A stretch of DNA of 41,856 nucleotides from Candidatus Woesearchaeota archaeon (GCA_043803105.1 JAZDKJ010000004.1:1-41856); one strand, 5' to 3'; shown: positions 5,923-24,924, counted from the first letter of the stretch. Notes: generated from the sequence alone by a model not told the origin. Made by a program: numbers and translations.

Positions 5923-7575
5923 TCATTTGGCAAGGACAGAATAAAGAGCATCTAAGCTTATCTCAAGGCAAGTGACAGGCATGTCAAGGTTCCAGTTACG
6001 AAGCACAGCAGGATGAAGCTCGCCAAGAAAGCCAACCTTCCTATGCTTGAGCATCACATTACCTACCCTGCCTTGGATAAATGAGTCATGGTCAGCCTCT
6101 TCAACAGAAATCTGTAGACCGATTGAGCGCATCAGGTAATCAAGGACTTGCCTAATGGAAGTGAAATCAGAGGAATCAGAACACAAAATCACGGAAAGTC
6201 TGTCAGTCTCTTCAACAGACGTCTCAAAGGACTCATTCTTCTTGAAGATAGTGCCAAAGCCAAAAATTTTCTGCGGATAATCATGATGCTTGTTGTTGGC
6301 GAGAACCTCGACAAGAGAGGGTATAAGCCAAGAGCGCAGGACATTGTACTCTGCAGATAATGAATTTGCGAGATGAATTACATCGGTTTTATGCTGCATT
6401 CTTGTTGTCTGGAACTCAATATTTGTCAGGTTGTAGGTGTTTACCTCGAGCAAGCCAAGACCTACAAGGAGCATAGAAAGCTTGGACTTGAAAACCTCAA
6501 ATGGATCCTCTGAAGCCACAGTGGCAGCATTGGGAATCAAGGCTTGGAAGTTTTCAAAGCCATAGGCTATTGCAATATCCTCCACAAAATCAATCTGATG
6601 CAAAATATCTGCGCGATAGGCAGGAATCAGGACAAACTTGTCTTTAAGGCCGAAGCCCATCCTTGCGAGCAAGGAATTCAATTCCTTGCGATTTAGCCTT
6701 AACCCAAGCCTTTTATTAACATAATCGAGGTCAATCTTCATTTTTCCAGGGCTTAGGTCTGGAGTAATGCGGGTCTTATCAGGATATTTGAGCTTCAAAG
6801 AGTAAACCTTTCCACCCATATCAGAGAGCGCAGTCACTATCATATTCAAGCACTTGTGCAAAACATCAAAATCAAAACCGCTGCACTCGATGAAAACATC
6901 TTTGGTAAGGTGCGTTATCTTGCCCGTTACATGTGAATTAATGATCGGCGGCATGGACAGAATGTTATCGTTGGCATCAACAAAAATGGGAAAGGAGTCA
7001 AGTCCGTCAAGCAGATGAGCATATTCCCTGCCTGCAGGATGGTCGCACAGGATTTGAAAGCCGTCAAGCACATGAGGAAATTCAAGGGGCTGGAACCTAA
7101 TGTCCTTCGGGTTCCTTGCCAAGAACCTTATTGGAAACCTTATCTTCTCCAGAGGATAAACACCAATGGCAGCCTTTTTCCTGTGACGGCCGTAGGTAAT
7201 GTGGAGCTTCTCTTGAATATCGACAACTTCCTTAATGGTTTCATCATCAAACTTCATGCCTTTGACGATAGCACAGGCAGTATATGGCCTAATCTTAGCA
7301 ACAGACTTGTCAACAATGACAGACTCACCTGAATCAGACACCTGATATTTTCTCAAACCAGGCTTCAAGCCTACAAACGAAGAAAACGCCCTTGCAAAGC
7401 CCTGCACAGAAAGCATGTCTGGACGGTTAGGGAAGACTTCGACGTTTATGTGGTTATCGTCAACAGAATCCAGGTCAGTGCCTAAATAACTAATCCGATC
7501 CTTCAGCTTTTCATTATCGAACTTTTTTCCTACATACTTTTCAAAAGACTTCCTGTCAAGAGAGATTGATGGCAT
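5923..7575 (-). CDS. pheT: Phenylalanyl-tRNA synthetase beta subunit
   Basis: PNRPDMLS, QEKLH, LSMPPIINS, PAYRADILHQIDFVEDIAIAYG, GELHPAVL; archaeal 550-aa form. Confidence 0.97.
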   Translation of the reverse strand: MPSISLDRKSFEKYVGKKFDNEKLKDRISYLGTDLDSVDDNHINVEVFPNRPDMLSVQGFARAFSSFVGLKPGLRKYQVSDSGESVIVDKSVAKIRPYTACAIVKGMKFDDETIKEVVDIQEKLHITYGRHRKKAAIGVYPLEKIRFPIRFLARNPKDIRFQPLEFPHVLDGFQILCDHPAGREYAHLLDGLDSFPIFVDANDNILSMPPIINSHVTGKITHLTKDVFIECSGFDFDVLHKCLNMIVTALSDMGGKVYSLKLKYPDKTRITPDLSPGKMKIDLDYVNKRLGLRLNRKELNSLLARMGFGLKDKFVLIPAYRADILHQIDFVEDIAIAYGFENFQALIPNAATVASEDPFEVFKSKLSMLLVGLGLLEVNTYNLTNIEFQTTRMQHKTDVIHLANSLSAEYNVLRSWLIPSLVEVLANNKHHDYPQKIFGFGTIFKKNESFETSVEETDRLSVILCSDSSDFTSIRQVLDYLMRSIGLQISVEEADHDSFIQGRVGNVMLKHRKVGFLGELHPAVLRNWNLDMPVTCLEISLDALYSVLAK

Positions 7576-8180
7576 CAGAACCCCAGCTCCTCATCAACTA
7601 TGATGACACTAATCCTTTCAAGCTGCTGAGCCTCGAGAATCACAAGCGAACTACAAATCCTGTCAGGGGAGGAACAATCAGAACATCTGCCAGTCTCTAC
7701 GCATGGAGTGTTCTTGTTGAGCCTTTTACAATTCAGGGGCGCTGCAACATTTCTTACACGGTCAATCGCATCATCAAGGTTTTTTGTTATCTTATTTTTT
7801 CCAACGACAAGGATTACCTTTTTGGGGCCGTAAAGCATTGCTGCAACACGATTGCCGCCACCATCAATGTTAACGATTTTTCCATCTTCGGTCACGGCAT
7901 TTGCGCTTGAAAGAAAAACATCACAAACAAGGGTTTGCCTACGCAAATCAAATTTCTTTTGCAGTTCGATCCCGGGAACAAACCAATCCAGAAAATTGTA
8001 GTTGGCCATTGCATCAATAATGCCACACTGCTCAAGAGTTGTGGAGCCACCCGCACCTACAACATCACTCTTACTAATCATTGACAAGACAAGATCTTTT
8101 GCAGCTAACTTATCATGGACCCTATGTGCCTTGATGCGATTCCTCTCGAGAGAGGCAATGGTCCTTGCTAGGGCATCCAT
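7575..8180 (-). CDS. LUD-domain (lactate-utilisation/YkgG-like) protein with C-terminal Cys cluster
   Basis: GAGGSTTL, DVFLSSANAVTEDGKIVNIDGGGNRVAAMLYGPKKVILVVGKNKI, APLNCKRL..TPCVETGRCSDCSSPDRIC. Confidence 0.85.
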   Translation of the reverse strand: MDALARTIASLERNRIKAHRVHDKLAAKDLVLSMISKSDVVGAGGSTTLEQCGIIDAMANYNFLDWFVPGIELQKKFDLRRQTLVCDVFLSSANAVTEDGKIVNIDGGGNRVAAMLYGPKKVILVVGKNKITKNLDDAIDRVRNVAAPLNCKRLNKNTPCVETGRCSDCSSPDRICSSLVILEAQQLERISVIIVDEELGF

Positions 8181-10845: not shown

Positions 10846-12324
10846 ATGGCCTACTATATGCCGGCACAGATAGACGTTGCGGGAGCATTCAGCTATGTAG
10901 GGGAATGGATAAATCAGATTTTCTCAAACGAATATGCGACATTTGGGGTAACAATCATAGTCCTTACAATACTTCTGAAATCAATATTTGCGGCAAGCCT
11001 TAGAAAGACCAAGTTGTTTGAGGGAGCAGGAGGAACAGGAACATCAGGACCTGGGAACGCAATCGCGTGGAGCTTTGCGATGCTTTCCAGCATAGGACTC
11101 TATTACCTGAAAGGAGACAGGAATGTTGGGGTGTTCCTGAGAAATATACTAGGGCCAGCAGGAATATGGGCAGCAATAGTTGCAACAATATTCCTGTTTC
11201 TTTGGCTAAAGGGAGCAACAGGATCAACCAAATGGGCACTTCCCCTCACAGGGTTAGCAGCAATAGCAATATCGAACATGGTCCAGTGGCCAATGCTTGC
11301 AAGCGGCGGGGTATTTATGATGATAGGAGGGGTCTTTTGGCTGATAGGATCAAGTGCGAGAGGGCCAAGGCCAATCAGCAGGAGAGATGTTAATCGCACA
11401 CAGAATGCTGACAACAGCCTTTCCAATACAACAAATAATCTTTTCAGAACACTGCAAAGAGACAATCAAGTTAACAGCCCTGTTGGAAGGACAGCGGTGA
11501 ATGCAGCAAATGCAGAAACCCAAGAAACCATGCAAGAAGAACAAAACCAGGCTGATGAAAACAGAAGGGTAAACAATGCAATTGCAGCAGCAGCAAGCGA
11601 CAATCCAGAAGCATTGGCAGTGTTGCACAGGGAAAGAGAAGGGCTATTCAGGGATTGGACGCAAGACCTGGCACAAATAGAACAAACCAACGCTCAAGTG
11701 GATGAAGACAGAAAAAACTTGGAAGCCTGCAGACAAGCGATTGGGCAACAGTTAAGCCAACTGGCAAAAGCAGAAGAACTTTCCAAAAAAGTAGAAGGAA
11801 AACTGCAATCTACAAACCCAGAAGAGCTTAAACGAATAAATAGGAATTATCCTGCGGACGTGAAACTCCACCTTGACCTCCTGAAGAAAGTATTTGATAA
11901 ATTGAGAGAATATCAGCAGCTCGAAACCAGGATTGGTGACATTGAAGCAGAATTAGAAAGCAAAGATAATCAGATAAGCCAAATAATTGGCACTGCATTA
12001 ACCCAGTTGCATGAAGACTACTTCACAAATAAGCAAGGAAGTATTGACGCACTTAAAGTTGTCAGAGATTTGGAACACAAGAAGAACATACTCCTTACAA
12101 ATAAGGAATCACTTATAAGGGAGCTGAAACGCAGTATATTCCATGCAGCCAATCTCTCTCGTGAAGTACAAGGAATGCAGCAAAGCATTTCTAGGCTTGA
12201 ACACGGACTCAGGATGGAGGAAGCAGATATGAAACTAAAGGCAGCTGAAGAGGAGGCCCTTGTTGCAAATGAAAAACAAAGAATTCAGGAAGTAGAAACA
12301 AGAAAAAGGGGCTTTAACATTTAA
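10846..12324 (+). CDS. Hypothetical membrane protein: ~5 N-terminal TM helices plus long coiled coil
   Basis: 492 aa; hydrophobic segments in aa ~30-170; Q/E/N/K-rich heptad-like helical remainder; TATA AAAAGTTTTAAATA at 10810-10823. Confidence 0.8.
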   Translation: MAYYMPAQIDVAGAFSYVGEWINQIFSNEYATFGVTIIVLTILLKSIFAASLRKTKLFEGAGGTGTSGPGNAIAWSFAMLSSIGLYYLKGDRNVGVFLRNILGPAGIWAAIVATIFLFLWLKGATGSTKWALPLTGLAAIAISNMVQWPMLASGGVFMMIGGVFWLIGSSARGPRPISRRDVNRTQNADNSLSNTTNNLFRTLQRDNQVNSPVGRTAVNAANAETQETMQEEQNQADENRRVNNAIAAAASDNPEALAVLHREREGLFRDWTQDLAQIEQTNAQVDEDRKNLEACRQAIGQQLSQLAKAEELSKKVEGKLQSTNPEELKRINRNYPADVKLHLDLLKKVFDKLREYQQLETRIGDIEAELESKDNQISQIIGTALTQLHEDYFTNKQGSIDALKVVRDLEHKKNILLTNKESLIRELKRSIFHAANLSREVQGMQQSISRLEHGLRMEEADMKLKAAEEEALVANEKQRIQEVETRKRGFNI

Positions 12325-12337
12325 GATAATCAGCAAT

Positions 12338-13120
12338 CTAAGCAAGCTGACTCTGGATAACCTTTCTCGGACAAACCTTGACACAATCAAGGCATTTATT
12401 GCATTTTGCAGGATCAATCTTCGCACAACTTGAGTCAATCGAAATAGCCTTGCTCTTGCAGGCCTTAACACACAAACCACAGGCAATGCAGCCATTTGAG
12501 CATGACTTGATGAATTCCTTTTTCTGATTGTGACAGGCTACAAAAACAGTGTCTGTGGCCTTGGATAACATAAGCACAGACTTGGGGCAGGCAGCAACGC
12601 AAAGATCGCAGCCAGTGCATTTCTTGTCATCAATAACAGGAAGGGAATCCTTCATTGAGATCGCACCAAATTGGCAGACCTTGAGGCAATCACCAAAACC
12701 AATGCAGGAGAAAGCACAAGACTTTGGACCATTTGAGAGAAGGCTTGCTGCCTTACAAGTTCTGATGCCGTGGTAGTCAAACTTTTCCTTGGAACCAGAC
12801 TTGCAGAGAACCCTTGCGAACATTTGGGCCTCTTGCTGCACCTTGACCCCTAAAACAGTCTCAATATCCTCAAGGACTTTTTTGCCTCCAAGACGGCAGT
12901 GGTTAGCAGCTTTAGGATCATGGACAAGGGCCTTAGCAAACTCTGAGCAGCTTGGAAAGCCACAGGCACCACAATTGCTTTGAGGCAGAACCTCAAATAC
13001 AGAATCGACCTTTGGGTCCTCCTTAGAGACAAAGCGTTTTGAAGCAAAGGCAAGACTAATTGCTAGGAGGAGCGCAATAACAGCAGCAGTAATCAGAGCA
13101 GTCATTATAGCTTGAATCAT
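12338..13120 (-). CDS. rnfB: Rnf complex subunit B (polyferredoxin)
   Basis: N-terminal TM, LPQSNCGACGFPSC, CIGFGDCLKVCQFGAI, CTGCDLCVAACPK, CIACGLCVKAC, CNKCLDCVKVCP. Confidence 0.95.
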   Translation of the reverse strand: MIQAIMTALITAAVIALLLAISLAFASKRFVSKEDPKVDSVFEVLPQSNCGACGFPSCSEFAKALVHDPKAANHCRLGGKKVLEDIETVLGVKVQQEAQMFARVLCKSGSKEKFDYHGIRTCKAASLLSNGPKSCAFSCIGFGDCLKVCQFGAISMKDSLPVIDDKKCTGCDLCVAACPKSVLMLSKATDTVFVACHNQKKEFIKSCSNGCIACGLCVKACKSKAISIDSSCAKIDPAKCNKCLDCVKVCPRKVIQSQLA

Positions 13121-13695
13121 TGAATCATCCCGCTAAAGGCAAGAAATGCCATGGACATAAGAGCAGCAGTAATAAATGCGATAGGAATGCCTTGAAAGTT
13201 CTTTGGCACATCACCAAGGTCAAGCCGCTCACGGACAGCAGACATCAAAAGAAGGGCAAGGAGAAAACCGAGGCCGCCGCCGATTGCATTAACAATGCTG
13301 CCGACAAGAGAATAATTCTTTTGTATGTTCAAGAAAGCAACGCCGAGCACAGCACAATTAGTTGTGATAAGGGGAAGGTAAATCCCAAGGGCATTATATA
13401 ATGATGGGCTGTATTGCTTTATAACCAATTCAAGAATCTGAACGAGGCTGGCTATAACGAGAATAAAAACGAGGATGTCCAAATACCCGATGTTTAACGG
13501 GATCAAGACCAGCTTCTCAATAACCCAAACAACAGTGGATGAAATCCCCATCACACCAGTAACAGCCAAGCCCATGCCTAGGGCAGGTTTCCAGCGGCGA
13601 GAAACACCTAAAAACGGGCAGATGCCAAGAAACTTTGAGAGCACAAAATTGTTAACAAAGATTGCCCCTATTATAATCACGAAAAGGTTTTCCAT
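13117..13695 (-). CDS. rnfA: Rnf complex subunit A
   Basis: NNFVLSKFLGICPFLGVS, LGIYLPLITTNCAVLG, RERL, FQGIPIAFITA. Confidence 0.96.
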   Translation of the reverse strand: MENLFVIIIGAIFVNNFVLSKFLGICPFLGVSRRWKPALGMGLAVTGVMGISSTVVWVIEKLVLIPLNIGYLDILVFILVIASLVQILELVIKQYSPSLYNALGIYLPLITTNCAVLGVAFLNIQKNYSLVGSIVNAIGGGLGFLLALLLMSAVRERLDLGDVPKNFQGIPIAFITAALMSMAFLAFSGMIQ

Positions 13696-13696
13696 G

Positions 13697-14296
13697 CTAG
13701 TGCCTCGCCACAGACTTGAAAGAGAAAAGCAAAAGACCCATCACAAGATAACCGCCAGGGGCCAAGAGAAGCATCCCTGCAGCAGGGGAATGGGTCTGGA
13801 CAATTGTGTGGCCAAGCAAAACAATCTGTGAGGTTCCTAAAAGCTCTCTTATTGAGCCGATAAGGGCAAGGGCGCAGACAAAGCCAGAGCCCATGCCAAG
13901 GCCATCAACAAGAGAATTCAGCACACCATTCTTGTAAGCAAAAGCCTCAGCACGAGCCATGATGATGCAATTGACAACAATCAACGGAACATAAATGCCA
14001 AGGCTATCATAAAGTGAAGGAGCATAACCTTGCATAAGCAGGCTAATGACAGTGACAGAGGTAGCAATTATCACAACAAAGAGTGGTATTCTGACATTGC
14101 TTGGAACAAAATTTCTCATTGAAGAGATAAGAACATTCGAGATTACAAGTACGAATAGAGTGGCAATACCCATGCCCAACGCGTTCTCCAAAGATATAGT
14201 TGTTGCAAGTGTGGGGCACATACCCAGAACTATCACAAATGTAGGATTCTGAGAGAAAAGACCTTTCCAAAAAACCTTGAGCCTTGAATCAGTCAT
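13697..14296 (-). CDS. rnfE: Rnf complex subunit E
   Basis: NPTFVIVLGMCPTLA, VRIP, LGIYVPLIVVNCIIMARAEAFA, GSIRELLG, LAPGGY. Confidence 0.96.
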   Translation of the reverse strand: MTDSRLKVFWKGLFSQNPTFVIVLGMCPTLATTISLENALGMGIATLFVLVISNVLISSMRNFVPSNVRIPLFVVIIATSVTVISLLMQGYAPSLYDSLGIYVPLIVVNCIIMARAEAFAYKNGVLNSLVDGLGMGSGFVCALALIGSIRELLGTSQIVLLGHTIVQTHSPAAGMLLLAPGGYLVMGLLLFSFKSVARH

Positions 14297-14796
14297 TTTA
14301 TCTCCTCGACCTTCAGGCGAACAGCCTCAGTAACAGCCTTTGATGATATTGTTGCGCTCGTAATCCCATCAATCTGACCGCCGTACTTTCTCAATGAGAG
14401 CTCTGAATCACTCTTGCCGATAAACTGAGAAAGAAAAGACTGGTCTTGAACCTTACTGCCCAAACCAGGGGTCTCTTGCTGAGAAAGCACAGAGATACCA
14501 ACAACCTTATGGTCAAGGCCAATAGCAACGAGAAGGCTGATGGTTGAAGAGTAACCTTTGGCAGATGTCAAGGCAGCATAACCAACAAGGTTGCCTTTCT
14601 CAAAGACTTGATAGGTTTGGTTCACAACCTTAACCTCATCAGAATTTGGAAAGAATTGCTTTAAATCATTGGACAAAGAAAGCTGTTTTTGGGCAGCAAT
14701 AATTGGAGCAGTCAAAGCGTAAACAAAAGAGAGCAGAGCAGTAGCAATCACAGTAACCAGAAACATGGACATAACCATTTTTGTAGTCTCTTTCAT
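14293..14796 (-). CDS. rnfG: Rnf complex subunit G (covalent FMN)
   Basis: Start set at MKETTK (track starts 14808). TM anchor, KGYSSTI, ETPGLGSK, DGITSATISSKAV flavinylation motif. Confidence 0.93.
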   Translation of the reverse strand: MKETTKMVMSMFLVTVIATALLSFVYALTAPIIAAQKQLSLSNDLKQFFPNSDEVKVVNQTYQVFEKGNLVGYAALTSAKGYSSTISLLVAIGLDHKVVGISVLSQQETPGLGSKVQDQSFLSQFIGKSDSELSLRKYGGQIDGITSATISSKAVTEAVRLKVEEIK

Positions 14797-14797
14797 T

Positions 14798-15715
14798 TCA
14801 ATAACCAAAAGGCTTTGGCTTTACAAGCCTGTCAATAAGCGGAACTGCCGCATTCATAAGCAGTATTGAAAAGGCAACACCCTCAGGATAACCGGAGTAT
14901 ATTCGCAAAATGACTGTGAGCAGACCGCAACCAATGGCAAAAAATATTTTCCCTTTCCTGCTAAGAGGGCTTGTCACATAATCAGTTGCCATGAAAAAGG
15001 CACCAAGCAATAGGCCACCGGAAAGCAGAGAGAAGAGCACATCATGTCCAAAAGCAAAAGAGAGAACGGCAACAGAGCCAAGATAAAAAAAGGGAATCCT
15101 CCAATCAATTACCTTGAAGCAGATCAGGAATAAGCCACCGATCAAAATAAGCATGGCAGAGGTCTCGCCAATACAGCCAGGCCTGTTGCCAATAAAAAGG
15201 TCAAAGTAAAGGTTGCCTGTAGTGCTGTACTGTGCAACCAACGAACTAAAGCCGTTAAGCTTTGCGACTGCGAGCGGAGTGGCAGAGGTGGTGCCGTCAA
15301 CAGCAACATAGGTTGACATAAGCAAAGGGAAAGAGACAGCAAGAAAGGTTCTTGCAGCAAGGGCGGGATTGAAAATCGCATTACCCGGGCCAAATGCATA
15401 TTTTACAATACCGACAGCAATGATCACACCAAAAACCGGAATCCACCATGGAACAGTCGGAGGAAGAACAAGGGCCAAAAGCAGAGAAGTAATAATTGTG
15501 GACAGGCTTAAATGGGGCTTTTTCTTCAGGATAAGTTGAAAAATAAAATCAAATAAAATAGCTGAAACAATACAAACTAGGATAACAAACAAGGCACTCA
15601 TGCCAAAAAAATAGATTCCTGCGGCGGTAGGAAAAAGCAAACCAATGATAAAAAGGAGGTAAAGCTTGTTGGTGGTAATCTTGTGCAGAATATGAGGGCT
15701 GTGCGAGACAATCAT
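14798..15715 (-). CDS. rnfD: Rnf complex subunit D (covalent FMN)
   Basis: SPH, IFNPALAAR, VDGTTSATPL, GCIGETS, GAFFMATDYVTSP, YPEGVAFSILLMN, PLID. Confidence 0.96.
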   Translation of the reverse strand: MIVSHSPHILHKITTNKLYLLFIIGLLFPTAAGIYFFGMSALFVILVCIVSAILFDFIFQLILKKKPHLSLSTIITSLLLALVLPPTVPWWIPVFGVIIAVGIVKYAFGPGNAIFNPALAARTFLAVSFPLLMSTYVAVDGTTSATPLAVAKLNGFSSLVAQYSTTGNLYFDLFIGNRPGCIGETSAMLILIGGLFLICFKVIDWRIPFFYLGSVAVLSFAFGHDVLFSLLSGGLLLGAFFMATDYVTSPLSRKGKIFFAIGCGLLTVILRIYSGYPEGVAFSILLMNAAVPLIDRLVKPKPFGY

Positions 15716-16998
15716 TTACGCATCCTCGCTGAGATTTCATGCTTTGCGAGCCTGATATGCTGCACAAGAGGTATCTTTGCAGGACAAACGAATGCACAGC
15801 AACCACATTCCATACATTCCATGGCGTGATAAGAATTGGCCAAAATAAAATCCCTATGCTCAGAAGCCTTGGCAATGATTGTGGGCATCAGATTGTAAGG
15901 GCATGCATCAACACAGCGACCACAACGAACACAATGCGAAGGTTCCAACAGTACTGGCTTGGACTGCACAAGCACGCAATTAGTGCCTTTAGTGACAGGG
16001 GCTTCATCTGTTGACAGGCAAGCACCCATCATCGGGCCTCCAACAATAAGTTTTCTAGGCTCTGAAGAATAACCACCGCAAAAGGCAATGAGCTCCTTTA
16101 TAGGAGTGCCAATCCTGACCAACATGTTCTGTGAATGGCGCACGTCGCCTGAGACAGTAACAACCCGTTCAATCAGGGGCTTCCTGAAAAACAAGGCATC
16201 AAAAACCGCTTTCACAGTGGCAACATTGCTTACAACAACGCCAACATCAAAGGGAAGCTTTGAATGAGGGCAGTCACGGCCAAGAACAGACTTAATGATA
16301 ACCTTTTCAGCACCTTGAGGATACTTTGTCCTTAAGACCTTTACCGTAATATTCCTCTCACCGTGCAACAATTCCTTAAAGAGATGTATGGCATCCCTCT
16401 TATTGCTCTCAATAGCAATATAGGCCTTGTCAACACCCAGAATCTGCATCTCAGCCTTAATGCCAGAGATAATATCTGGGGCATACTCGAGCATGAGCCT
16501 GTGATCACAAGTGAGATAAGGCTCGCACTCAGCACAATTGATAATCAGAGAATCAACAGCCTTGGGAGGCTTGAGTTTAATATGTGTTGGAAAACAGCTT
16601 CCGCTCAAGCCAACAATGCCTGCCTCACGAACAATTGCCAAAAGCTCATCAGTACTTCTCTTGAGAACAGAATTATCGCGCACAAGCTCAGGAGCCTTGT
16701 CCGGCTTAGCCTCGATGACAACAGAAATACATTCAGTCCCAGAAATGTCTGAGCGAATCAAGTCAACAACAGTACCGGAGACAGAGGCATGCACAGGAGC
16801 GCAAAGGCCTAACGAGGAGTCGCCAATCTTCTGGTAAAGGGCAACTTTGTCACCAATCTTGACCAATGGCTTGCACTCTATTCCCGTATGCTGAAGCAAG
16901 GGTATCATAACCTTGGAAGGCAAGGGCATAGCAACAATCTGGGAGAGAGTAGCAAGTTTTAAGTCTAACAGAACAACCCCTTTTTTGAAAGACAGCAT
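15712..16998 (-). CDS. rnfC: Rnf complex subunit C (NADH/FMN, 2x[4Fe-4S])
   Basis: PLLQHTG, PVHASVSGTV, AGIVGLSGSCFPTHIKL, NCAECEPYLTCD, KYPQGAEK, GGPMMG, CVRCGRCVDACP, CMECGCCAFVCP. Confidence 0.96.
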   Translation of the reverse strand: MLSFKKGVVLLDLKLATLSQIVAMPLPSKVMIPLLQHTGIECKPLVKIGDKVALYQKIGDSSLGLCAPVHASVSGTVVDLIRSDISGTECISVVIEAKPDKAPELVRDNSVLKRSTDELLAIVREAGIVGLSGSCFPTHIKLKPPKAVDSLIINCAECEPYLTCDHRLMLEYAPDIISGIKAEMQILGVDKAYIAIESNKRDAIHLFKELLHGERNITVKVLRTKYPQGAEKVIIKSVLGRDCPHSKLPFDVGVVVSNVATVKAVFDALFFRKPLIERVVTVSGDVRHSQNMLVRIGTPIKELIAFCGGYSSEPRKLIVGGPMMGACLSTDEAPVTKGTNCVLVQSKPVLLEPSHCVRCGRCVDACPYNLMPTIIAKASEHRDFILANSYHAMECMECGCCAFVCPAKIPLVQHIRLAKHEISARMRK

Positions 16999-17001
16999 CA
17001 A

Positions 17002-17073
17002 AGCAGCAAATAAATATGGGGTTATTTAAAACTAACGAAAGGTTTATATCAACGGTTAAAGGGCTATAGCCAT
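17002..17073. promoter_or_regulatory. Divergent archaeal TATA promoters for the rnf operon and apbE
   Basis: GTTTTAAATAA (minus, ~17022-17032) and AAAGGTTTATAT (plus, 17038-17049), each ~24 nt from a start codon. Confidence 0.6.
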
Positions 17074-18048
17074 GTGAAAAGAATCACAGTTCTTGCTGCA
17101 TTGATTTGTGCAATTCTTGCTCTAACAACAGGCTGTTCGACAACATTCTACAAGGCAACACAATCGCAAAACATGATGGGCACAACAGTGACAATAACCT
17201 TAGTGGACACTAACGCGAACAAGGCCAGGGCAGCCATAATAACAGCGTTCGACAGGATGAAGAAAATTGAAACGACCATGAGCATATACGATAATAAGAG
17301 CGAGATTACAAAACTAAACAGAAAAAAGAAGCTAACCGATGCATCAGAAGACCTTCTGACAGTCATTGAAGAATCACTAAAATACAGCAAAATGAGCGAC
17401 GGAGCATTTGACATAACTGTGCAGCCAATACTTGACCTTTTCACAAAAACCTACACGGAACTGAACAGACCGCCCACGGAGAAAGAGATTGAAACACAAA
17501 GAAATAGAATAGACTACAGGCAAGTGCAAGTTGAAAACAAGACAATAACAATAGGCAACATGACAATAATCACGCTCGGGGGAATTGCAAAGGGCTATGC
17601 AATCGACAAGGCAATCGAGAGCCTGCAGGAGAGAGGGATCAGCAGGGCGCTAGTCGACGCAGGAGGCAACCTAAGGGCGATAGGAAAGAAAACAGCAGAA
17701 GAGCCTTGGATTGTGGCACTGCAAAACCCCAGAAACAACAGTGACTACATAACCATGATCAAATTAGAGGACGAGTCTGTAGCAACATCAGGAGACTATG
17801 TTCGGTACTTTGACAAGAACAAGACAGCACACCACATAATAAACCCGAAAACAGGAACATCAGCAACAGACCTAATCAGCGCTACAGTCATCACAAAAAA
17901 AGCAATGGAGGCAGACGCACTCTCAACCACAGTATTTGTTCTAGGACCTGAGAAAGGGCTAAAATTAATAGAAAGCATGAACTGGACTTCAGCTTTGCTC
18001 ATAACAAGAGACAGAAAAATAATCAGGTCAAGCAGGTTCAAGTACTAA
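17074..18048 (+). CDS. apbE: FAD:protein FMN transferase (lipoprotein)
   Basis: Lipobox LTTGC, MMGTTVTI, GAFDITV, TLGGIAKGYAID, DAGGN, ATSGDY, HHIINPKTG, ADALST. Confidence 0.95.
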   Translation: MKRITVLAALICAILALTTGCSTTFYKATQSQNMMGTTVTITLVDTNANKARAAIITAFDRMKKIETTMSIYDNKSEITKLNRKKKLTDASEDLLTVIEESLKYSKMSDGAFDITVQPILDLFTKTYTELNRPPTEKEIETQRNRIDYRQVQVENKTITIGNMTIITLGGIAKGYAIDKAIESLQERGISRALVDAGGNLRAIGKKTAEEPWIVALQNPRNNSDYITMIKLEDESVATSGDYVRYFDKNKTAHHIINPKTGTSATDLISATVITKKAMEADALSTTVFVLGPEKGLKLIESMNWTSALLITRDRKIIRSSRFKY

Positions 18049-19093
18049 GCTTGTACCTCAGGATTGCAGCAATGCCACAGAGGCCTTGGAACCTTTTGCC
18101 AGCATCATGCTCAACAGAAATAATGCGCACAACACCCCGTAAATCCTCAACAAGCTTCATCAACTGCTCAAGCCTGGAAAAAGAACCAGACTCACGCATG
18201 GCCTTAATAAAAGAGTCAGAAACCAGCAAGGTCTTAACAGCACCAGCCTGTGCGCATGCAAGAACCTGATCAAAGCCATAAGATGCAGAACCTGACCTAG
18301 AAATCTCAAGGAAGAGCTCTTCAACCATTGCAGACTCCTGGGCGATTCGCTCAGAAACAAGTGCGCTCTGCACTTCAGGCCTTCGAAGCAGCTCAGAGAG
18401 GCCTGATTCTGTAACAGAAGAAGTGGTTGCCAGAATAAGTTTTGAGCGCAGGGCCTTGTCAACAATCAGCTTCTGCAGGTCCTCCTTCCAGAAAGAAGGG
18501 CTTGCAACAATAATCCTGGTGAAGCCGAACCTTGAATCGTAATCAACAAGCATCTTAACCAGCTCAGAAAAAAAAACCTTGTGCACTTTATCAGGAGAGT
18601 CCTTCTTCTGGACATCGCCCAGCAAATGTGAAAGGATCTCATAACCATGAGTCTTTAAGGCCGCAAAAAAAGCCTCTTCCCTGTCTAAGAGCAGAACAAG
18701 AACGTTAGTTGGCTTTGAGCGGTATGAATCCTTTAGCTTATCAAGCTGATAGGACAACCAATGCTCTTTAACAACAGTAAGCCTTGAATGCTCTTCAAGG
18801 TCAAGGGTGTGATACACACCCTTTGGAATGTCTTCAGGGGCTTCAACAATCTTTCCGGACAAACGAAGGCTGGAGTTCAACTCGACCTTCTCAACGCTGA
18901 TAGTCACAAACACAACCCTCTTCACTGCAGAGGTCTGGCGGTCATCAACAGAACCTACCTTGAGCTTGCGGACAGTCTTCGCACTAACAAGATCATTTGG
19001 CTCAATGAGCTGGCTCAAAACCCAGAGGTCATCATTATTTTCAACCTGAAGTTTTACCAACCCTTTCCTCAAATCAGCGTGCACCTGAATCAT
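18038..19093 (-). CDS. pelA: Pelota/Dom34 ribosome rescue factor
   Basis: ENNDDLWVLSQLI, LRLSGKI, GVYHTL, GAVKTLLVSD, EHDAGKRFQGLCGIAAILRY. Confidence 0.95.
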   Translation of the reverse strand: MIQVHADLRKGLVKLQVENNDDLWVLSQLIEPNDLVSAKTVRKLKVGSVDDRQTSAVKRVVFVTISVEKVELNSSLRLSGKIVEAPEDIPKGVYHTLDLEEHSRLTVVKEHWLSYQLDKLKDSYRSKPTNVLVLLLDREEAFFAALKTHGYEILSHLLGDVQKKDSPDKVHKVFFSELVKMLVDYDSRFGFTRIIVASPSFWKEDLQKLIVDKALRSKLILATTSSVTESGLSELLRRPEVQSALVSERIAQESAMVEELFLEISRSGSASYGFDQVLACAQAGAVKTLLVSDSFIKAMRESGSFSRLEQLMKLVEDLRGVVRIISVEHDAGKRFQGLCGIAAILRYKLST

Positions 19094-19150
19094 GGAAACA
19101 TTTATATATGGTTAATTATCAGGAAAAAATCAAAGGATATTAAAAACATT

Positions 19151-20809
19151 ATGAAAAAAGGGCAAGAAAAAGCAACTGCTGCAAGCCTGGTAGCAACAAT
19201 CGCAGGCCTGATAATCCTTTACATAATATTCCTACCTCCCCAGGACAGGGCAGAACTCTTGGGAGAGCAGCCGTCAAGCATCAGCGGAGGGGGCAGCCCT
19301 ACCACACATGAAACAACAAGAAATGATAGCATATTCTCTGCAAGCCCGGGAAAGATTTTCTACCAGAAACTCGATGAATTTGAATACGACCTTTCTGCAT
19401 TCACCCTGATGAAAACAACAGGGGCAAGCGTGATATCAACTGCAAACAACTTCAGGGTAAGGAATGGCTGGTTTGACAAGATTACAAAAAATGTAACATT
19501 CACAATCGCAGACGCAGAAAACACTGACAACGTAATGCTGTCGTTTGGAGCGCAGAGGCACACTGGAACACTCACAATCAAACTGAACGGAGCAGGAATA
19601 TATGATTTTGAGATCGACACACAATCGCCAAATCCGATAAGCCTGGATAAGACACTGCTAAAGAACGGCAAGAACACGCTGGAATTTTCGGTATCAGGAG
19701 TTGGACCAAGATTCTGGACAACGAACGAATACAGCCTGCATGACATCAAGATAGTTGGAGATGTGACAGACACGACCAGGCAGGAGAGCAAGAACACATT
19801 CTACATCTCGCCTGAAGAAAGCCAAAACCTTGAAAAGGCAGAGCTGAAATTCAATCCTGATTGCAGGCCAAGCCAGACAGGAATCCTGGATGTTCTACTC
19901 AACCAAAGAAGCATATTCTCAGGGATACCGGACTGCGGCACACTCAACAAATATACATTCTCACCAAGCCTCCTTAACATCGGAAAAAACTCAATCAATT
20001 TCAAGACCGGGGCTGGAAGCTACCTGGTAGACCAAATAAGCGTCAAGACCTTCCTAAAACAGCCAGTACAGCCAACATTCTACTTTGATTTGGATGAAAA
20101 CCTGTTCAACAAGGACAAAGAAAGCGTGGCCAGGTGCGGAGATGTTGACGGAATCTGCCCAAACGGCTGCGGAAAGGACCTTGACAAAGACTGCTGCTTC
20201 GAGGAATTCCCGACAGGATTCTTCTGCAAGACAAAAACAGAATACATAGGGGACAGGTGTGTGGGATTTGTGGACAAAGGAAGCTGCAACAGGTGCTCAT
20301 CAGGCTACAAGGATAAAAATGGCGAGGGTGCATCAGCATGCGAAGACCTTTGCGGAGATGACTCAGATGGTTCTTGCCCACACGGATGCCTCGCAAAATA
20401 TGACAAGGACTGCTGCTTTGAACTAAGTGAAGAGCAATTCTGGTGCAAAGACCTGCCAATAACCGGCGAGGATTTCATATGCATGAACGACCTTACAACC
20501 AGCACATGCCAGAACTGCGAGACAGGTTACGAGGCAGAGGGAACTGGATTTGACTGCAAGCCGATAACAGAAGAGAAAAAAACAGACTTAGAAAAGGGAA
20601 CAGACATAATACTAATTTTCAGATTCACGGAGTCGAGAGAAGACAAGGAAGCAGAGGTCTGGATAAACGGCAAACAGACAAGCTTTGCCACAAGGGAATC
20701 AAGCTACAGGAAAAACATAAACGAGTTTGTAGAGCCAGGGACAAACTCAATATTGATAAAACCGAAAACAGATCTTGACATAAGGGAACTACAGGTAAAG
20801 TTTGACTGA
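19151..20809 (+). CDS. Surface protein with class III (pilin-type)-like N-terminus, beta-sandwich domains and duplicated Cys-rich module
   Basis: Start moved to MKKGQ (19151); the track extension is antisense to pelA. MKKG|Q..hydrophobic helix LVATIAGLIILYIIFLPP; repeated 'GxNxxxF' beta motifs (NGKNTLEF, IGKNSINF, PGTNSILI). Confidence 0.8.
   Translation: MKKGQEKATAASLVATIAGLIILYIIFLPPQDRAELLGEQPSSISGGGSPTTHETTRNDSIFSASPGKIFYQKLDEFEYDLSAFTLMKTTGASVISTANNFRVRNGWFDKITKNVTFTIADAENTDNVMLSFGAQRHTGTLTIKLNGAGIYDFEIDTQSPNPISLDKTLLKNGKNTLEFSVSGVGPRFWTTNEYSLHDIKIVGDVTDTTRQESKNTFYISPEESQNLEKAELKFNPDCRPSQTGILDVLLNQRSIFSGIPDCGTLNKYTFSPSLLNIGKNSINFKTGAGSYLVDQISVKTFLKQPVQPTFYFDLDENLFNKDKESVARCGDVDGICPNGCGKDLDKDCCFEEFPTGFFCKTKTEYIGDRCVGFVDKGSCNRCSSGYKDKNGEGASACEDLCGDDSDGSCPHGCLAKYDKDCCFELSEEQFWCKDLPITGEDFICMNDLTTSTCQNCETGYEAEGTGFDCKPITEEKKTDLEKGTDIILIFRFTESREDKEAEVWINGKQTSFATRESSYRKNINEFVEPGTNSILIKPKTDLDIRELQVKFD
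20135..20563 (+). repeat. Two ~70-aa Cys-rich protein repeats
   Basis: CGDVDGICPNGCGKDLDKDCCFE..FFCK..C..C..CSSGY vs CGDDSDGSCPHGCLAKYDKDCCFE..FWCK..C..C..CETGY. Confidence 0.85.
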
Positions 20810-20829
20810 AGCCTTCTTTGCCAGCAGAA

Positions 20830-22959
20830 ATGAGCTTTAAGAGCAGAGTTGTGGATATTCTAAAGAAAAGCCCCAAGTACACTTTAGGGTCGCCTTACTA
20901 TGCTGGCAAGGCAGTAGCAAGAGGGAGTTTTGGACCTTTATTTCTTGCAGCACTATTGGTGCATGCAATTGATGCATATTACCTTCAATTCAGCCAAGGC
21001 GCAGCAGGAGTAAGGGTTGCAATGTGGTTTGTGGTCTTCTTGCTAGGCTGGTTCACATTAAAGGACTATGGAGTGGACTTCCAGACTATGGGAATCGCAG
21101 CTGCACTTTCAGCATTCAGCTTAATGATGCCATACCTCAAGGCATGGATTGACCTGATGCCAATAACATTCAAGATAGGCAACTTCCTTGTCTTATTCGC
21201 ACCAGTATGGCTCATGTATCTATTATATTTCTGCCCGCAGTCACCTCATTGGGTGCAGGTTATAGGAAAATGGTATCTTATAGCGTGGATGATAATAGGG
21301 ATGATGTATGGGTTCCAGACAGGATGGTTCCAGCAGCTAGAAACACTAAAGACAGGGTACATAGATGTATGGCAACCATTGGTTTCTGTCTACAACCTGG
21401 TGGTTCAATCGGTCAAGAATGCCTGGGAAACAATATGGGAATTATCAAAAAAAATCAACGAGACAAAATCAAGCTATATGAACTACGCTACTGGGGGGGA
21501 CCTATACACTGGAAAGGTAGACCAGAATGCAAAGGAAAAACTAGGGGTGTACTTAGAGGATGTCAAACTGTCCCAGGCAAATTTCTTCAAGGATGAGCCA
21601 GTCAACCTTTGGGCAACAATCGTTGCAAAGACATTTGATAAATCAATAATAGTCAATGCAAACTGCATAGCAGACAAGGGAACAAAGCAGCAACGCAGGG
21701 CAGACAGGGTAATACCTGGCACAGGATACGAGGTGTTGATGACTGACGAGACTGACCTGGACTGCTCATTTGACCCAAACAGCCTGCAGCTCGGCAGCCA
21801 TAGGATATCAATAATAGCAAATTTTACATTCCAGACACTTGCTTACCAAAAGGTGTACCTCGTTGACAAGACAAGAGCGCTTGCACTCGCAAAAGACAAC
21901 ATAGACGTACTTGACTATTACAAGATCACTGACAAAAGGCCAACAGCAGTATATACAAACGGGCCAGTAATGATAGGCATGGACGTAAAGGGGCTGCCAA
22001 TAAAGCTCGGGAACGAAGGCAATGACCTGTTTGTGCTGGGCATTACAATCAAGAACCAATGGCAAGGCAGGATAGTGAACATCACAAGGCTTGAACTGAG
22101 GATGCCATCTTTCAGCGAACCAGAAAAGTTAACATGCGGAGGATATAAGTTCATACCGATAGACAAGGGCGTATACTTGCTGCAAAATACGATGGGGGAG
22201 ATAAAGGACTATCGCACACTAAGGTGCCCGATACGGATAACCAGCCAGACAGACGCACTTGGCAACACCCCAATATCAATACAGTACTATAAGGTCAACG
22301 CAGACTACATATACGAACTGGAGAAGAGCGTCACAGTAAGCGTGCAGGAAACAGACGCAGACAAGAGACTCGCAGAAGAGACAAAAAAGACAGCACCCCA
22401 AATAAAAGGGCTAAATGACATAATGATGCAGCAAAGCAGCTCTTACAATCCAATCAACCTGCTTGACTATGCATCAGACAAAGAAACCCCTAAAGAGCAG
22501 CTCAGCTTCAGGATAGTATCTCAATCAAGGCCTGAGGTAGCAGAATGTGTATTAAGCGGAAGCGCAACTCTCTTATGCAGTGCAAAAAACACAGTTGGTT
22601 TTACTGAGGTAGTAGTTGAGGTCAATGACAAGGCAAGAACAAACACAACAAAACTCAGGATAACTGTGGGCAGTGAACAAAGCAGCACAACAATAACACC
22701 GGGCACAAGCAGCACACCCGCATCATGCCAACAGAGAGAAAACGAACTGACAGGCTGTGGCGGCTTAGACAACAGTGCAATGATCAAAAGCACAGGAGAA
22801 TGCGTAAGCAAATGCGAGTATTACAGGGGATGCTTTGGCATAGGAACTGATTGGGGGTGTTACTGCAGCCAGGCAGAATGCGCTGCAAACCCCCTACTGT
22901 GCAAAACCCAATATTGCCCAGATGACAGATACTGTTGTGCAGTACAGGCGATGATATGA
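20830..22959 (+). CDS. Multi-TM surface protein with the shared lipoprotein-family domain, a cadherin/Ig-like domain and Cys-rich tip
   Basis: ~5 N-terminal TMs; ANFTFQT, NGPVMI, ITIKNQWQG, LRC, ADYIY echo the downstream paralogs; PQIKGLND..INLLDYASDKETP..LSF Ig-like; S/T linker; Cys-rich C-terminus. Confidence 0.8.
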   Translation: MSFKSRVVDILKKSPKYTLGSPYYAGKAVARGSFGPLFLAALLVHAIDAYYLQFSQGAAGVRVAMWFVVFLLGWFTLKDYGVDFQTMGIAAALSAFSLMMPYLKAWIDLMPITFKIGNFLVLFAPVWLMYLLYFCPQSPHWVQVIGKWYLIAWMIIGMMYGFQTGWFQQLETLKTGYIDVWQPLVSVYNLVVQSVKNAWETIWELSKKINETKSSYMNYATGGDLYTGKVDQNAKEKLGVYLEDVKLSQANFFKDEPVNLWATIVAKTFDKSIIVNANCIADKGTKQQRRADRVIPGTGYEVLMTDETDLDCSFDPNSLQLGSHRISIIANFTFQTLAYQKVYLVDKTRALALAKDNIDVLDYYKITDKRPTAVYTNGPVMIGMDVKGLPIKLGNEGNDLFVLGITIKNQWQGRIVNITRLELRMPSFSEPEKLTCGGYKFIPIDKGVYLLQNTMGEIKDYRTLRCPIRITSQTDALGNTPISIQYYKVNADYIYELEKSVTVSVQETDADKRLAEETKKTAPQIKGLNDIMMQQSSSYNPINLLDYASDKETPKEQLSFRIVSQSRPEVAECVLSGSATLLCSAKNTVGFTEVVVEVNDKARTNTTKLRITVGSEQSSTTITPGTSSTPASCQQRENELTGCGGLDNSAMIKSTGECVSKCEYYRGCFGIGTDWGCYCSQAECAANPLLCKTQYCPDDRYCCAVQAMI

Positions 22960-23894
22960 AAAACATCTATGTAATGATTTTTTTGATGCTCATCCTGATT
23001 ACAGGCTGCGCTGGAACAACCTCGAGAAAAATCGTGGAAACAAATGTCAAGGAAGGGACGAAAGGCATAGAGATGAGTTTTTTCGATGGAACACCGCCAA
23101 ACACAGTATTTGAGGCAAGCGACTTCCTTATTTCTGCACAAATATCAAACCAAGGGGCAACAGACGTCACGGCAGGCTACCTAACAATAAGCACTGAAAA
23201 AGAATATATGGGGCTGATAGACTGGAAGAGCAGTATCATAAGCTCAAGCACGCCTGAGAACGCAATGTTTGCAATCCAAGGCAAGTCACAATCAAATCCG
23301 GCAGGGGACAGCAGCGTAATCACAATCAGAGCCAAAACCCTAACCATTGACCCTCAAAGCGAAACACACACAAGCACAATTGTTATGACAGCATGCTATC
23401 CATACAAGACAACCTTCTCAACTGATGTCTGCGTTGACCCAGACATGTACACAATGAAGGCAGAGAGAAAAGCCTGCGTTGTGAAACTGATTGGGCTATC
23501 AAGCCAGGGAGGGCCGGTCGCTGTAACCAGGATAGAGCCACAGATGCTCATCGGAGATGATGGACTGGTAAGGCCCCAATTCACATTATACCTGAGAAAT
23601 GAGGGCAATGGAGCAGTGTTTGACATAAACAGCATGGAAACAGTATGCTCAAGCGCATCACTAAGAAAAGAGGATGTGAATTTTGTACAGGTAAAAGCAA
23701 AACTCTCAGACAAGACCCTAACATGCAAGCCGACAAGCATACACTTGAAGGATACAGATAACATGGTAAGATGCTCGTCAGAAAACGGTTATACTGGAGG
23801 AAGCAACAGTTTTGTGGCACCGCTGGTTGTTGAGATCAGCTATGGATACTCTTTCTCGATAACAAAGGAGATAATCATAAGAAGGGTCAAATAG
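22956..23894 (+). CDS. Putative lipoprotein, paralog 1
   Basis: Start MKNIYV (ATGA overlap); lipobox ITGC; GTKGIEMSF..PP, ACYPYKT, CVDPD, SQGGPVAV, LRNEGNG, PLVVEISYGY. Confidence 0.85.
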   Translation: MKNIYVMIFLMLILITGCAGTTSRKIVETNVKEGTKGIEMSFFDGTPPNTVFEASDFLISAQISNQGATDVTAGYLTISTEKEYMGLIDWKSSIISSSTPENAMFAIQGKSQSNPAGDSSVITIRAKTLTIDPQSETHTSTIVMTACYPYKTTFSTDVCVDPDMYTMKAERKACVVKLIGLSSQGGPVAVTRIEPQMLIGDDGLVRPQFTLYLRNEGNGAVFDINSMETVCSSASLRKEDVNFVQVKAKLSDKTLTCKPTSIHLKDTDNMVRCSSENGYTGGSNSFVAPLVVEISYGYSFSITKEIIIRRVK

Positions 23895-23957
23895 AAACAT
23901 TTAAATAATAAAGTCATGACAAAAGCATCATCAGTGCGCATTGATGAGTGAATAAAG

Positions 23958-24908
23958 ATGAACAAACAGTCCATATACTTTCTTCTCGCAATAGCGTGCC
24001 TACTGCCACTAAGCTCTTGCACTGCGGGCAGAAGCCAGGCAATCAACGCAGGAGACGAAAACTTCAGGACAGGAACCCAAGGGCTACAGTTGAGATTCCT
24101 TCCTTACAGCCCACCTGACAAGATTTTTGATAACGAGGAGCTACACGCTAGAATCGAGGTCTTCAACAAGGGAGCAGAGGACATAACAGGCTCAAACAAC
24201 AGGCTTTACCTGAGCGGATTTGACACAACAATCATCACAGGAATACCTACGATGGGATTCCAGATACCCGACCTTCAAGGCAAGAAATTCTTCAACCCGG
24301 AAGGAGAATTTGACAACGTGGATATCACAGGATTTGTACGAGACCTAAAATCAAGGAACATTGACTTCTACAACACAATACTCATGGCAACCGCATGCTA
24401 CAAATATAAGACGATCGCTGACCCGAGCGCTTGCGTGGACCCTGACCCTTTCTCAACATCAGTCCAGGACAAGGTATGCGACTTCAACAGCCAGCCTGCA
24501 TTAGGAAGCCAAGGCGCTCCAGTCATTATTGATTCTGTACAGGTTGAGGCGATGAACGGAAAGGCGAGGTTCAAGATCAGCGCGAGGAACGCAGGCGGAG
24601 GAGACGTACTAAAGGACGGAGCTGACATTTTGGACAGATGCAACCCGTACGACCCTAAAGGACTAGACATCAGAGACCTTGACTATGTACATGTGGACGA
24701 AGTGGTATTGGGAGACACATCAATACTCGGGAACTGCAGGCCGCTAGAAAATGGATACTTAAGGCTTAGGACAAGCGGCTCTGGCGCAATGATATGCGAG
24801 GTAGATGGATTAAGTGGGCCAGCATACCTGACGCCGCTAAGAATAACAGTCTCGTACAATTACAGAAGCATAATCACACAAAACCTAAGAATACTACAAG
24901 CAAATTAA
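23958..24908 (+). CDS. Putative lipoprotein, paralog 2
   Basis: Lipobox LSSC; GTQGLQLRF..PP, ACYKYKT, CVDPD, SQGAPVII, ARNAGGG, PLRITVSYNY; TATA ACATTTAAATA at ~23897. Confidence 0.85.
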   Translation: MNKQSIYFLLAIACLLPLSSCTAGRSQAINAGDENFRTGTQGLQLRFLPYSPPDKIFDNEELHARIEVFNKGAEDITGSNNRLYLSGFDTTIITGIPTMGFQIPDLQGKKFFNPEGEFDNVDITGFVRDLKSRNIDFYNTILMATACYKYKTIADPSACVDPDPFSTSVQDKVCDFNSQPALGSQGAPVIIDSVQVEAMNGKARFKISARNAGGGDVLKDGADILDRCNPYDPKGLDIRDLDYVHVDEVVLGDTSILGNCRPLENGYLRLRTSGSGAMICEVDGLSGPAYLTPLRITVSYNYRSIITQNLRILQAN

Positions 24909-24924
24909 AAGGGAGGTCACAGAA

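Follow-up and report, generated by a model that had tools for sequence, protein, structure and literature searches.

What does a bacterial-type Rnf complex do in an archaeon in which the genes for an ATP synthase were not found? The question is raised by a contig from a Candidatus Woesearchaeota archaeon (GCA_043803105.1, JAZDKJ010000004.1:1–41856), which carries a complete rnfCDGEAB operon and a divergent apbE gene at positions 12338–18048; the window, as we call the whole 41,856-base stretch analysed, is the entire contig. Rnf in this lineage is already published, and this genome is one more carrier. Our best overall explanation, to which we give a probability of roughly 60%, is that an inherited clostridial-type Rnf would serve redox balance and membrane energisation without ATP synthesis.

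ORF calling and profile searches revealed six intact open reading frames (ORFs), rnfC-D-G-E-A-B, on the minus strand at 12338–17001, with adjacent genes overlapping by 4 or 11 nt or spaced by 1 nt, and with no stop or frameshift in any of the six. Subunit identity was judged by the curated score cut-offs of NCBIfam TIGR01943–01948, and by Pfam families as well; each product matched its expected Pfam family, aligned nearly end to end with the family models and exceeded its NCBIfam Rnf cut-off. The NADH/FMN-binding subunit RnfC (15712–17001; 429 amino acids (aa) as listed) has two 4Fe-4S motifs and PF13375, PF01512, PF10531 and Fer4 domains, scored 474.8 bits with TIGR01945 (cut-off 245.95) and had 7zc6_C as its top match among solved structures (E 3e-110); of the TTG-ATG that opens the frame, the ATG (16998) is the probable start. 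The membrane subunit RnfD (14798–15715; 305 aa; PF03116, 343.6 bits; TIGR01946, 276.1 against a cut-off of 207.05) aligned end to end with 7zc6_D (E 3e-75). RnfG (14293–14808) is 171 aa long from a TTG, with an ATG four codons in, and is predicted to consist of an N-terminal membrane helix followed by an outward-facing FMN-binding domain (PF04205, 64 bits; TIGR01947, 111 against 102). RnfE (13697–14296; 199 aa; PF02508, 201.5 bits; TIGR01948, 237.8 against 213.4) and RnfA (13117–13695; 192 aa; PF02508, 208.5 bits; TIGR01943, 267.1 against 229.3) are both membrane subunits. RnfB (12338–13120; 260 aa) is of the long form, with a membrane anchor, an FeS domain and several ferredoxin-type 4Fe-4S motifs (PF04060 and Fer4 families; TIGR01944, 98.8 against 68.7); its alignment with 9eri_B spans residues 1–256 (E 5e-56), and it is the predicted ferredoxin-side entry of the complex. 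On the plus strand, divergent from rnfC, apbE (17074–18048; 324 aa, GTG start) encodes an FAD:protein FMN transferase (PF02424, 282.9 bits against 25.6) that scored below the cut-off of the E. coli-type equivalog NF007774 (140.8 against 498).

The best solved relatives of the six Rnf proteins were the complexes 7zc6 and 9eri (E 3e-110 to 3e-16), which we take to be those of Clostridium tetanomorphum and Acetobacterium woodii, respectively. Judged by their sequences, the six genes are a canonical clostridial/Acetobacterium-type Rnf complex. ORF calls and a Pfam scan of the cluster gave no additional ORF within it, and there is thus no multihaem cytochrome gene there. A preliminary description of this DNA had claimed just such a complete operon with apbE, in clostridial/Acetobacterium order, lacking a multihaem cytochrome gene and equipped with flavinylation Thr motifs and their maturase; all of this was correct, and its coordinates were exact.

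The motifs themselves were read from the translations and from alignment. RnfD carries DGTTSAT (15278–15298, minus strand), which aligns with DGVTTAT of 7zc6_D and lies in a stretch that keeps its D, T, A, P and L unchanged in 12/12 RnfD sequences of the order to which this genome belongs. Near its C-terminus, RnfG carries DGITSAT (14350–14370, minus strand), aligned with the ITGAT stretch of 7zc6_G. The covalent-FMN Thr motif has the consensus D-x-x-S/T-G/S-A-T; RnfD and RnfG both match it, and flavinylation of both is predicted. Cys26 and Cys114 of RnfA and Cys27 and Cys110 of RnfE align with Cys residues of the A and E chains of 9eri and 7zc6; as in NQR/Rnf structures, these two pairs presumably hold an intramembrane Fe-S cluster.

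ApbE combines its catalytic domain with a putative export or anchor signal that would place it on the outer face of the membrane. Its N-terminus, VKRITVLAALICAILALTTGC, is signal- or lipoprotein-like and includes ...LALTTGC, with the Cys codon at 17134–17136. A hydrophobic N-terminal segment is present in 22/22 ApbE homologues encoded beside rnf in the order, 8 of which fit a strict lipobox pattern; the pattern undercounts, as ITAC and LASC were seen by eye. Exported or anchored there, ApbE would attach FMN to Thr of RnfG and RnfD. As RnfG was the sole FMN_bind-domain protein in a genome-wide profile search, Rnf is the obvious client of ApbE.

Between rnfC and apbE lies a divergent intergenic region of 72 bp (17002–17073) with two TATA-like boxes, TTTAAATA (17023–17030, minus strand), ~28 nt before the rnfC ATG, and TTTATATC (17043–17050), ~27 nt before the apbE GTG. 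Two of three relatives examined, G001 (L062) and G221 (L061), likewise have a TATA-like box ~27 nt before the rnfC ATG, and the third, G042 (L067), has no clear one before rnfC. The boxes fit archaeal leaderless promoters, as which they may function, in keeping with the archaeal TATA promoters proposed in the preliminary description.

That description had also taken the operon to imply chemiosmotic energy conservation, and had named A/V-type ATPase, PFOR and hydrogenase among the genes to look for. The genome comprises 1.56 Mb in 13 contigs of a metagenome-type assembly, rated 96.47% complete and 1.51% contaminated. The four-subunit PFOR porGDAB is present, beside fibrillarin and Nop56, as is a four-gene NiFe hydrogenase whose alpha, gamma and delta subunits have sulfhydrogenase subunits as their best matches, in each case below the equivalog cut-off, and whose beta subunit scores slightly higher to AsrA; a type I GAPDH gene adjoins it. 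An ATP-grasp_5 gene, ADP-forming acetyl-CoA synthetase-like, occupies an 889-aa frame. ATP synthase A/B (PF00006) and c (PF00137) subunits had no match anywhere in the 1.56 Mb, while 14/14 control genomes were positive, and tblastn with the A/B subunits of relatives gave no hit in the genome. Nor did profile searches of the genome find an H+-PPase, FeFe hydrogenase (PF02906), acetate kinase or Ldh_1_C; in the profile search for an ATP/ADP translocase (PF03219), no control genome was positive. The genome has 74 ORFs with at least six predicted membrane helices. We scanned 47 proteins for membrane systems, namely most ORFs with at least eight helices, some with six or seven, and cluster neighbours; no Mrp- or Nuo-like module was found among these many-helix ORFs and neighbours. 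Two of the named partners are in place, and the third was not found, leaving chemiosmotic conservation, in the sense of ATP synthesis, without its partner.

In the scheme that we propose, Rnf would work in the membrane as a ferredoxin:NAD+ oxidoreductase and export Na+ or H+. PFOR would reduce ferredoxin, and ADP-forming acetyl-CoA synthetase would yield ATP by substrate-level phosphorylation. Rnf, the only route of ferredoxin re-oxidation found in a search that was not exhaustive, would pass the electrons to NAD+, and the NiFe hydrogenase, probably a cytoplasmic, sulfhydrogenase-like (group 3b-like) enzyme, would vent electrons of NAD(P)H as H2. Since neither an ATP synthase nor an H+-PPase was found, the exported ions would be spent on transport and export rather than on ATP: on secondary transporters (antiporters, symporters and efflux pumps) and on protein export with SecDF. 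Candidate users of such a gradient are three CPA antiporters, MatE, MFS, Nramp and CitMHS proteins, two TctA proteins, SecY and SecDF.

Whether the missing ATP synthase is peculiar to this genome can be judged from its Rnf-bearing relatives. We assembled 36 genomes, 35 with rnfD over the cut-off plus G317, and including the window's own genome (G000); these are kin, not independent samples. PFOR is present in 35 of them, NiFe hydrogenase in 22 and FeFe hydrogenase in 19, and all 36 have at least one of the two hydrogenases. ATP synthase A/B was detected in 23/36 and was not found in 13/36. The 13 are, with their completeness, the window's genome (96%), its genus mate G001 (84%), three genomes of family f83 (98, 93 and 93%), G119 (97%), G149 (97%), G028 (94%), G162 (93%), G347 (89%), G377 (86%), G258 (79%) and G141 (59%). 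All three f83 genomes keep intact rnfCDGEAB and apbE. We tentatively propose that in these carriers (this genus, f83 and others), which may have lost ATP synthase or never possessed it, Rnf may be the main primary ion pump, with reduced ferredoxin from fermentation energising the membrane for transport and export and no ATP being synthesised.

Several observations weigh against our explanation. ATP synthase is commoner with Rnf (23/36) than in rnf-negative genomes (9/32), and in a one-genome-per-family sample, again of kin, it was over the cut-off in 6/9 rnf-bearing against the same 9/32 rnf-negative genomes; this suggests that ATP synthase is the usual partner of Rnf in the order, as in the published model. 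The absence here is argued from a 13-contig, 96.5%-complete assembly, whose gaps could hide an ATP synthase operon. The genome also encodes a P-type ATPase that best matches Ca2+ types, and Rnf may therefore not be the sole primary pump. The cofactor of the NiFe hydrogenase is not readable from sequence, its subunits score below the equivalog cut-offs, and making H2 from NAD(P)H requires very low H2 pressure. As to inheritance, codon usage divides: GC3 of the six rnf genes lies between the 13th and 43rd percentiles of 762 long ORFs, which agrees with the host-like codon skew of the preliminary description, but synonymous codon usage is atypical, just 2.4% of equal-length random gene sets being as deviant as the operon.

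The first two of these observations, together with the coupling proposed in the Rnf passages of PMC8421398, are also what favours classical chemiosmosis, in which a Na+ or H+ gradient built by Rnf would drive an A/V-type ATP synthase whose genes are missing from the assembly. We consider this unlikely. Against it stand the unmatched profiles, with all 14 control genomes positive, and the negative tblastn search, and, though the genome's own assembly is incomplete, the absence is repeated in independent relatives, including the same-genus genome, the three f83 genomes at 93–98% completeness and four more at 93% or above.

Running the complex backwards, so that a gradient drives electrons from NADH onto ferredoxin for biosynthesis, is less probable still. 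Rnf is reversible in bacteria (also in the relevant part of PMC8359207), and the type I GAPDH would make NADH. Such a mode needs another generator of the gradient, however, and neither ATP synthase, H+-PPase nor, among the scanned proteins, an Mrp- or Nuo-like module was found; PFOR already provides reduced ferredoxin, and no other enzyme that would re-oxidise it was found in the non-exhaustive search.

It is very improbable that the operon is a decaying relic, passed down in a reduced, host-dependent cell that has ceased to benefit from it. The order does contain cases of decay: G151, a genome of ~0.9 Mb in family f28, keeps only rnfC and rnfD, and two f24 genomes keep only rnfD-E-A and a mini rnfB. 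In the window, by contrast, the six genes and apbE are all undamaged and each catalytic motif checked is present, and the same-genus genome keeps six intact genes at 58% protein identity, which points to long purifying selection.

The reduced loci merit description in their own right. In G151 (L059, 6930–9171), rnfC and rnfD are followed by a ZIP transporter gene; rnfGEAB and any ApbE match are lacking, and pelota, a 673-aa ORF (orf673) and the RFC small subunit lie nearby as in the window, so that the locus resembles an operon in the course of reductive loss. The f24 clusters (L070, 2205–4983, in G317; L275, 2589–4882, in G218) consist of rnfD, rnfE, rnfA and a mini rnfB of 81–115 aa with the PF04060 FeS domain only, and have no rnfC or rnfG alongside. 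They adjoin a DUF7121 gene and have ribosomal protein L10 nearby (in G218 also L12 and L1). The f24 cluster may represent a minimal relative of Rnf, made up of the membrane core.

The host is archaeal, of the DPANN class Candidatus Nanoarchaeia (Nanobdellota, Nanobdellati) as judged by a same-order genome so classed. Besides Rnf, the contig encodes pelota, the RFC small subunit, FEN1, Hjc, a tRNA-splicing endonuclease, RNase P p30, PheRS alpha and beta, TrmB regulators and aIF-2B-type proteins. On either side the operon is bordered by archaeal genes, pelota overlapping the end of apbE, and GC content is even along the contig (0.41–0.46). The neighbourhood recurs elsewhere in the order: apbE-pelota-orf673 and PheRS beta adjoin rnf in three f31 genomes too, and pelota and orf673 adjoin rnfC-rnfD in both f28 genomes, with the RFC small subunit as well in G151. 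A bacterial operon misassembled onto an archaeal contig, or contamination, is effectively refuted, for all that the operon is of bacterial type and somewhat atypical in codon usage: the archaeal flanks and overlap, the even GC, the closest Rnf sequences, which belong to the same order, and above all the neighbours shared across three families exclude a chimera, and the last of these also make the insertion older than those families. The DPANN host named in the preliminary description is thus upheld, and the chimeric assembly that it had listed as a possible refutation was not found.

Some of the neighbours are of interest in themselves. A LUD-domain (lactate-utilisation-type) gene lies at 7575–8180 of the window, between the PheRS alpha and beta genes, and large flanking ORFs of 311–713 aa at 10846–12324, 18788–20809, 20818–22959 and 22935–25860 have no Pfam or NCBIfam match. 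One of these ORFs, the 673-aa orf673, is kept beside pelota in families f31 and f28.

We built trees of the Rnf proteins with loci from named genomes drawn, by RnfD alignment, as the best 80 of 596 pattern matches, 79 of them labelled bacterial. We kept loci that had at least four of the six subunits and removed L076, a duplicate of L041, which left 100 rows of 1556 columns. With FastTree, all 28 rows from the order, the window included, fell in one 31-row clade (support 90). With IQ-TREE (LG+G4; 68 of the 100 rows), the order rows shared a 32-row cluster (support 91) with four bacterial rows, among them L080, which is truly bacterial (GyrA, bacterial TyrRS, 56% GC). Constraining the 28 order rows to one clade gave a lnL 5.08 above that of the free tree (p-AU 0.543), and a single acquisition by the order is therefore not rejected. 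The closest relative of the window's Rnf is that of the same-genus genome, at just 58% identity over 1523 columns. As sister group, FastTree gave Omnitrophota/Planctomycetota/Leptospirales (SH 87) and IQ-TREE gave no resolved group; we name no donor, because the sister group is unstable, the backbone consists of very short branches and bacteria are thinly sampled (the best 80 of 596).

Together, these results indicate an operon that was acquired from bacteria long ago by an ancestor within the order and has been largely inherited since, with losses. The old, domesticated transfer suggested in the preliminary description is borne out as to its age, by the synteny in three families and by a single clade not being rejected. 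In a tree of 85 PheRS-beta rows, 31 carry rnf, and their distribution requires 14 changes, against a mean of 25.4 when labels are shuffled (0/500 as low). PheRS beta was nevertheless rejected as a species marker, because it comes in two deep types inside the order, both of which also contain other orders; its tree is unreliable as a species tree, and so we draw no history of gains and losses from it. The two types are an observation of separate interest: relative to the window's PheRS beta (5923–7575; compared with L186–L273), they stand at 33–41% and 46–64% identity, even within families f10 and f16, which suggests an ancient replacement or transfer of this aminoacyl-tRNA synthetase subunit.

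How widespread is the complex? RnfD was over the cut-off in 38/401 sampled genomes of the order, the window's genome included; three of these are unpublished (G132, G207 and G209), and without them the count is 35/398. A phylum-wide sample of 401 genomes gave 14 hits over the cut-off, all in the same order (one being the unpublished G209), and just weak matches to short RnfD-like proteins in other orders. All six genes in the order CDGEAB are present in 18/35 loci of published order genomes, most of the others being cut by contig ends. The preliminary description had considered the finding uncommon, though perhaps already reported for some Woesearchaeota, and had named Rnf being common and vertically inherited in the lineage as what would undo it. 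Reports do exist: the Rnf passages of PMC8421398 (Nat Commun 2021) describe six-gene rnfCDGEAB operons in four Woesearchaeota subgroup-J genomes, note their resemblance to Acetobacterium woodii, infer transfer from bacteria and propose coupling of Rnf to a V-type ATP synthase, and those of PMC11606122 (Microbiome 2024) report expression of a full rnf cluster from a Woesearchaeota metagenome-assembled genome (MAG). PMC8359207 and PMC6704655 mention Woesearchaeota and Rnf but, in the relevant passages, credit Rnf to bacteria only. With 38/401 carriers and mostly vertical inheritance, the refuting case that the description had named applies, at least to a sub-lineage of the order.

Variants of RnfD itself were also seen. 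The RnfD ORFs of several order loci of the L031 type (for example L036, L044, L049 and L052) are listed at 397–569 aa, against 305 aa in the window; the extra length may be genuine or may come from start codons called too early. Stand-alone short proteins of the RnfD/NqrB family, of 253–268 aa with PF03116 scores of 72–86 bits, are encoded at L276 4115–4888 (G407, of another order), L277 3969–4775 (G102) and L278 4209–4970 (G272). They adjoin small redox proteins: in one case a cupredoxin-like protein and glutaredoxin, in another a Rieske protein in the vicinity, and in another a Fer4_15 ferredoxin immediately upstream. Several other orders of the class also gave weak matches of this short-RnfD kind.

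Multi-helix clusters on contigs C6, C12 and C13 of the window's genome had been suspected of being Mrp/Nuo-like and turned out to be glycosylation/polysaccharide genes. The clusters (C13:86419–100500, L184; C12:47715–59558, L180; C6:471390–480735, L175; all in G000) combine many-helix proteins with glycosyltransferases. They hold PMT_2, GT1/2/4/9, Polysacc_synt, an exosortase EpsH-like protein and a B12-radical SAM enzyme, together with several membrane proteins of 450–690 aa that have no family match.

As Rnf in DPANN archaea is already in print, the general picture of DPANN metabolism is unchanged. The present case contributes breadth and context: in about one-tenth of the order's genomes the operon is an old trait, syntenic and mostly inherited, and in about one-third of the carriers an ATP synthase was not found. 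Should that absence be real, Rnf would serve redox balance and membrane energisation, not ATP yield, and would offer a testable answer to how ultra-small DPANN cells that lack ATP synthase keep a membrane potential. A narrow phrase search of the literature for work connecting 'Rnf complex' with a lack of ATP synthase returned no such paper.

Compared with known systems, the Na+-NQR (the family of PDB 7xk3) shares a homologous core with the window's complex (RnfD/NqrB, RnfA/NqrE, RnfE/NqrD and RnfG/NqrC) and likewise depends on ApbE for flavinylation; the window's proteins stay below the Nqr equivalog cut-offs, and in place of an NqrF-type subunit the window has RnfB and RnfC. The Methanosarcina-type Rnf is likewise archaeal and has ferredoxin as its donor, but its cluster includes a multihaem cytochrome gene, whereas the window's does not, and all six Methanosarcina equivalog models fell short of their cut-offs (rnfC, for instance, reached 295.9 of the required 650). 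Its acceptor is methanophenazine, not NAD+. The likeness to the bacterial complexes 7zc6 and 9eri, the latter deposited in the PDB as a Na+-translocating ferredoxin:NAD+ oxidoreductase, is far-reaching, with nearly end-to-end alignment of the six subunits, the same gene order, a long multi-cluster RnfB, and the FMN Thr sites and four RnfA/RnfE Cys residues in common. What differs is the archaeal host, the putative archaeal-type promoters and the divergent apbE, which lies next to rnfC in 22/35 order loci but at few of the bacterial loci (best 80 of 596).

Closest of all are the Woesearchaeota complexes described in the Rnf passages of PMC8421398 and PMC11606122, which belong to the same lineage at class or order level and share the rnfCDGEAB order, a bacterial origin, and PFOR and hydrogenase in the same genomes. 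Those passages pair Rnf with a V-type ATP synthase, an [FeFe] hydrogenase and Etf/Bcd. This genome departs from that model: ATP synthase and FeFe hydrogenase were not found in it, and a sulfhydrogenase-like NiFe enzyme is present instead of the published [FeFe] hydrogenase. PMC8421398, in the same passages, names four MAGs; to these the present survey adds a wider count, with rnfD in 38 of 401 genomes of the order.

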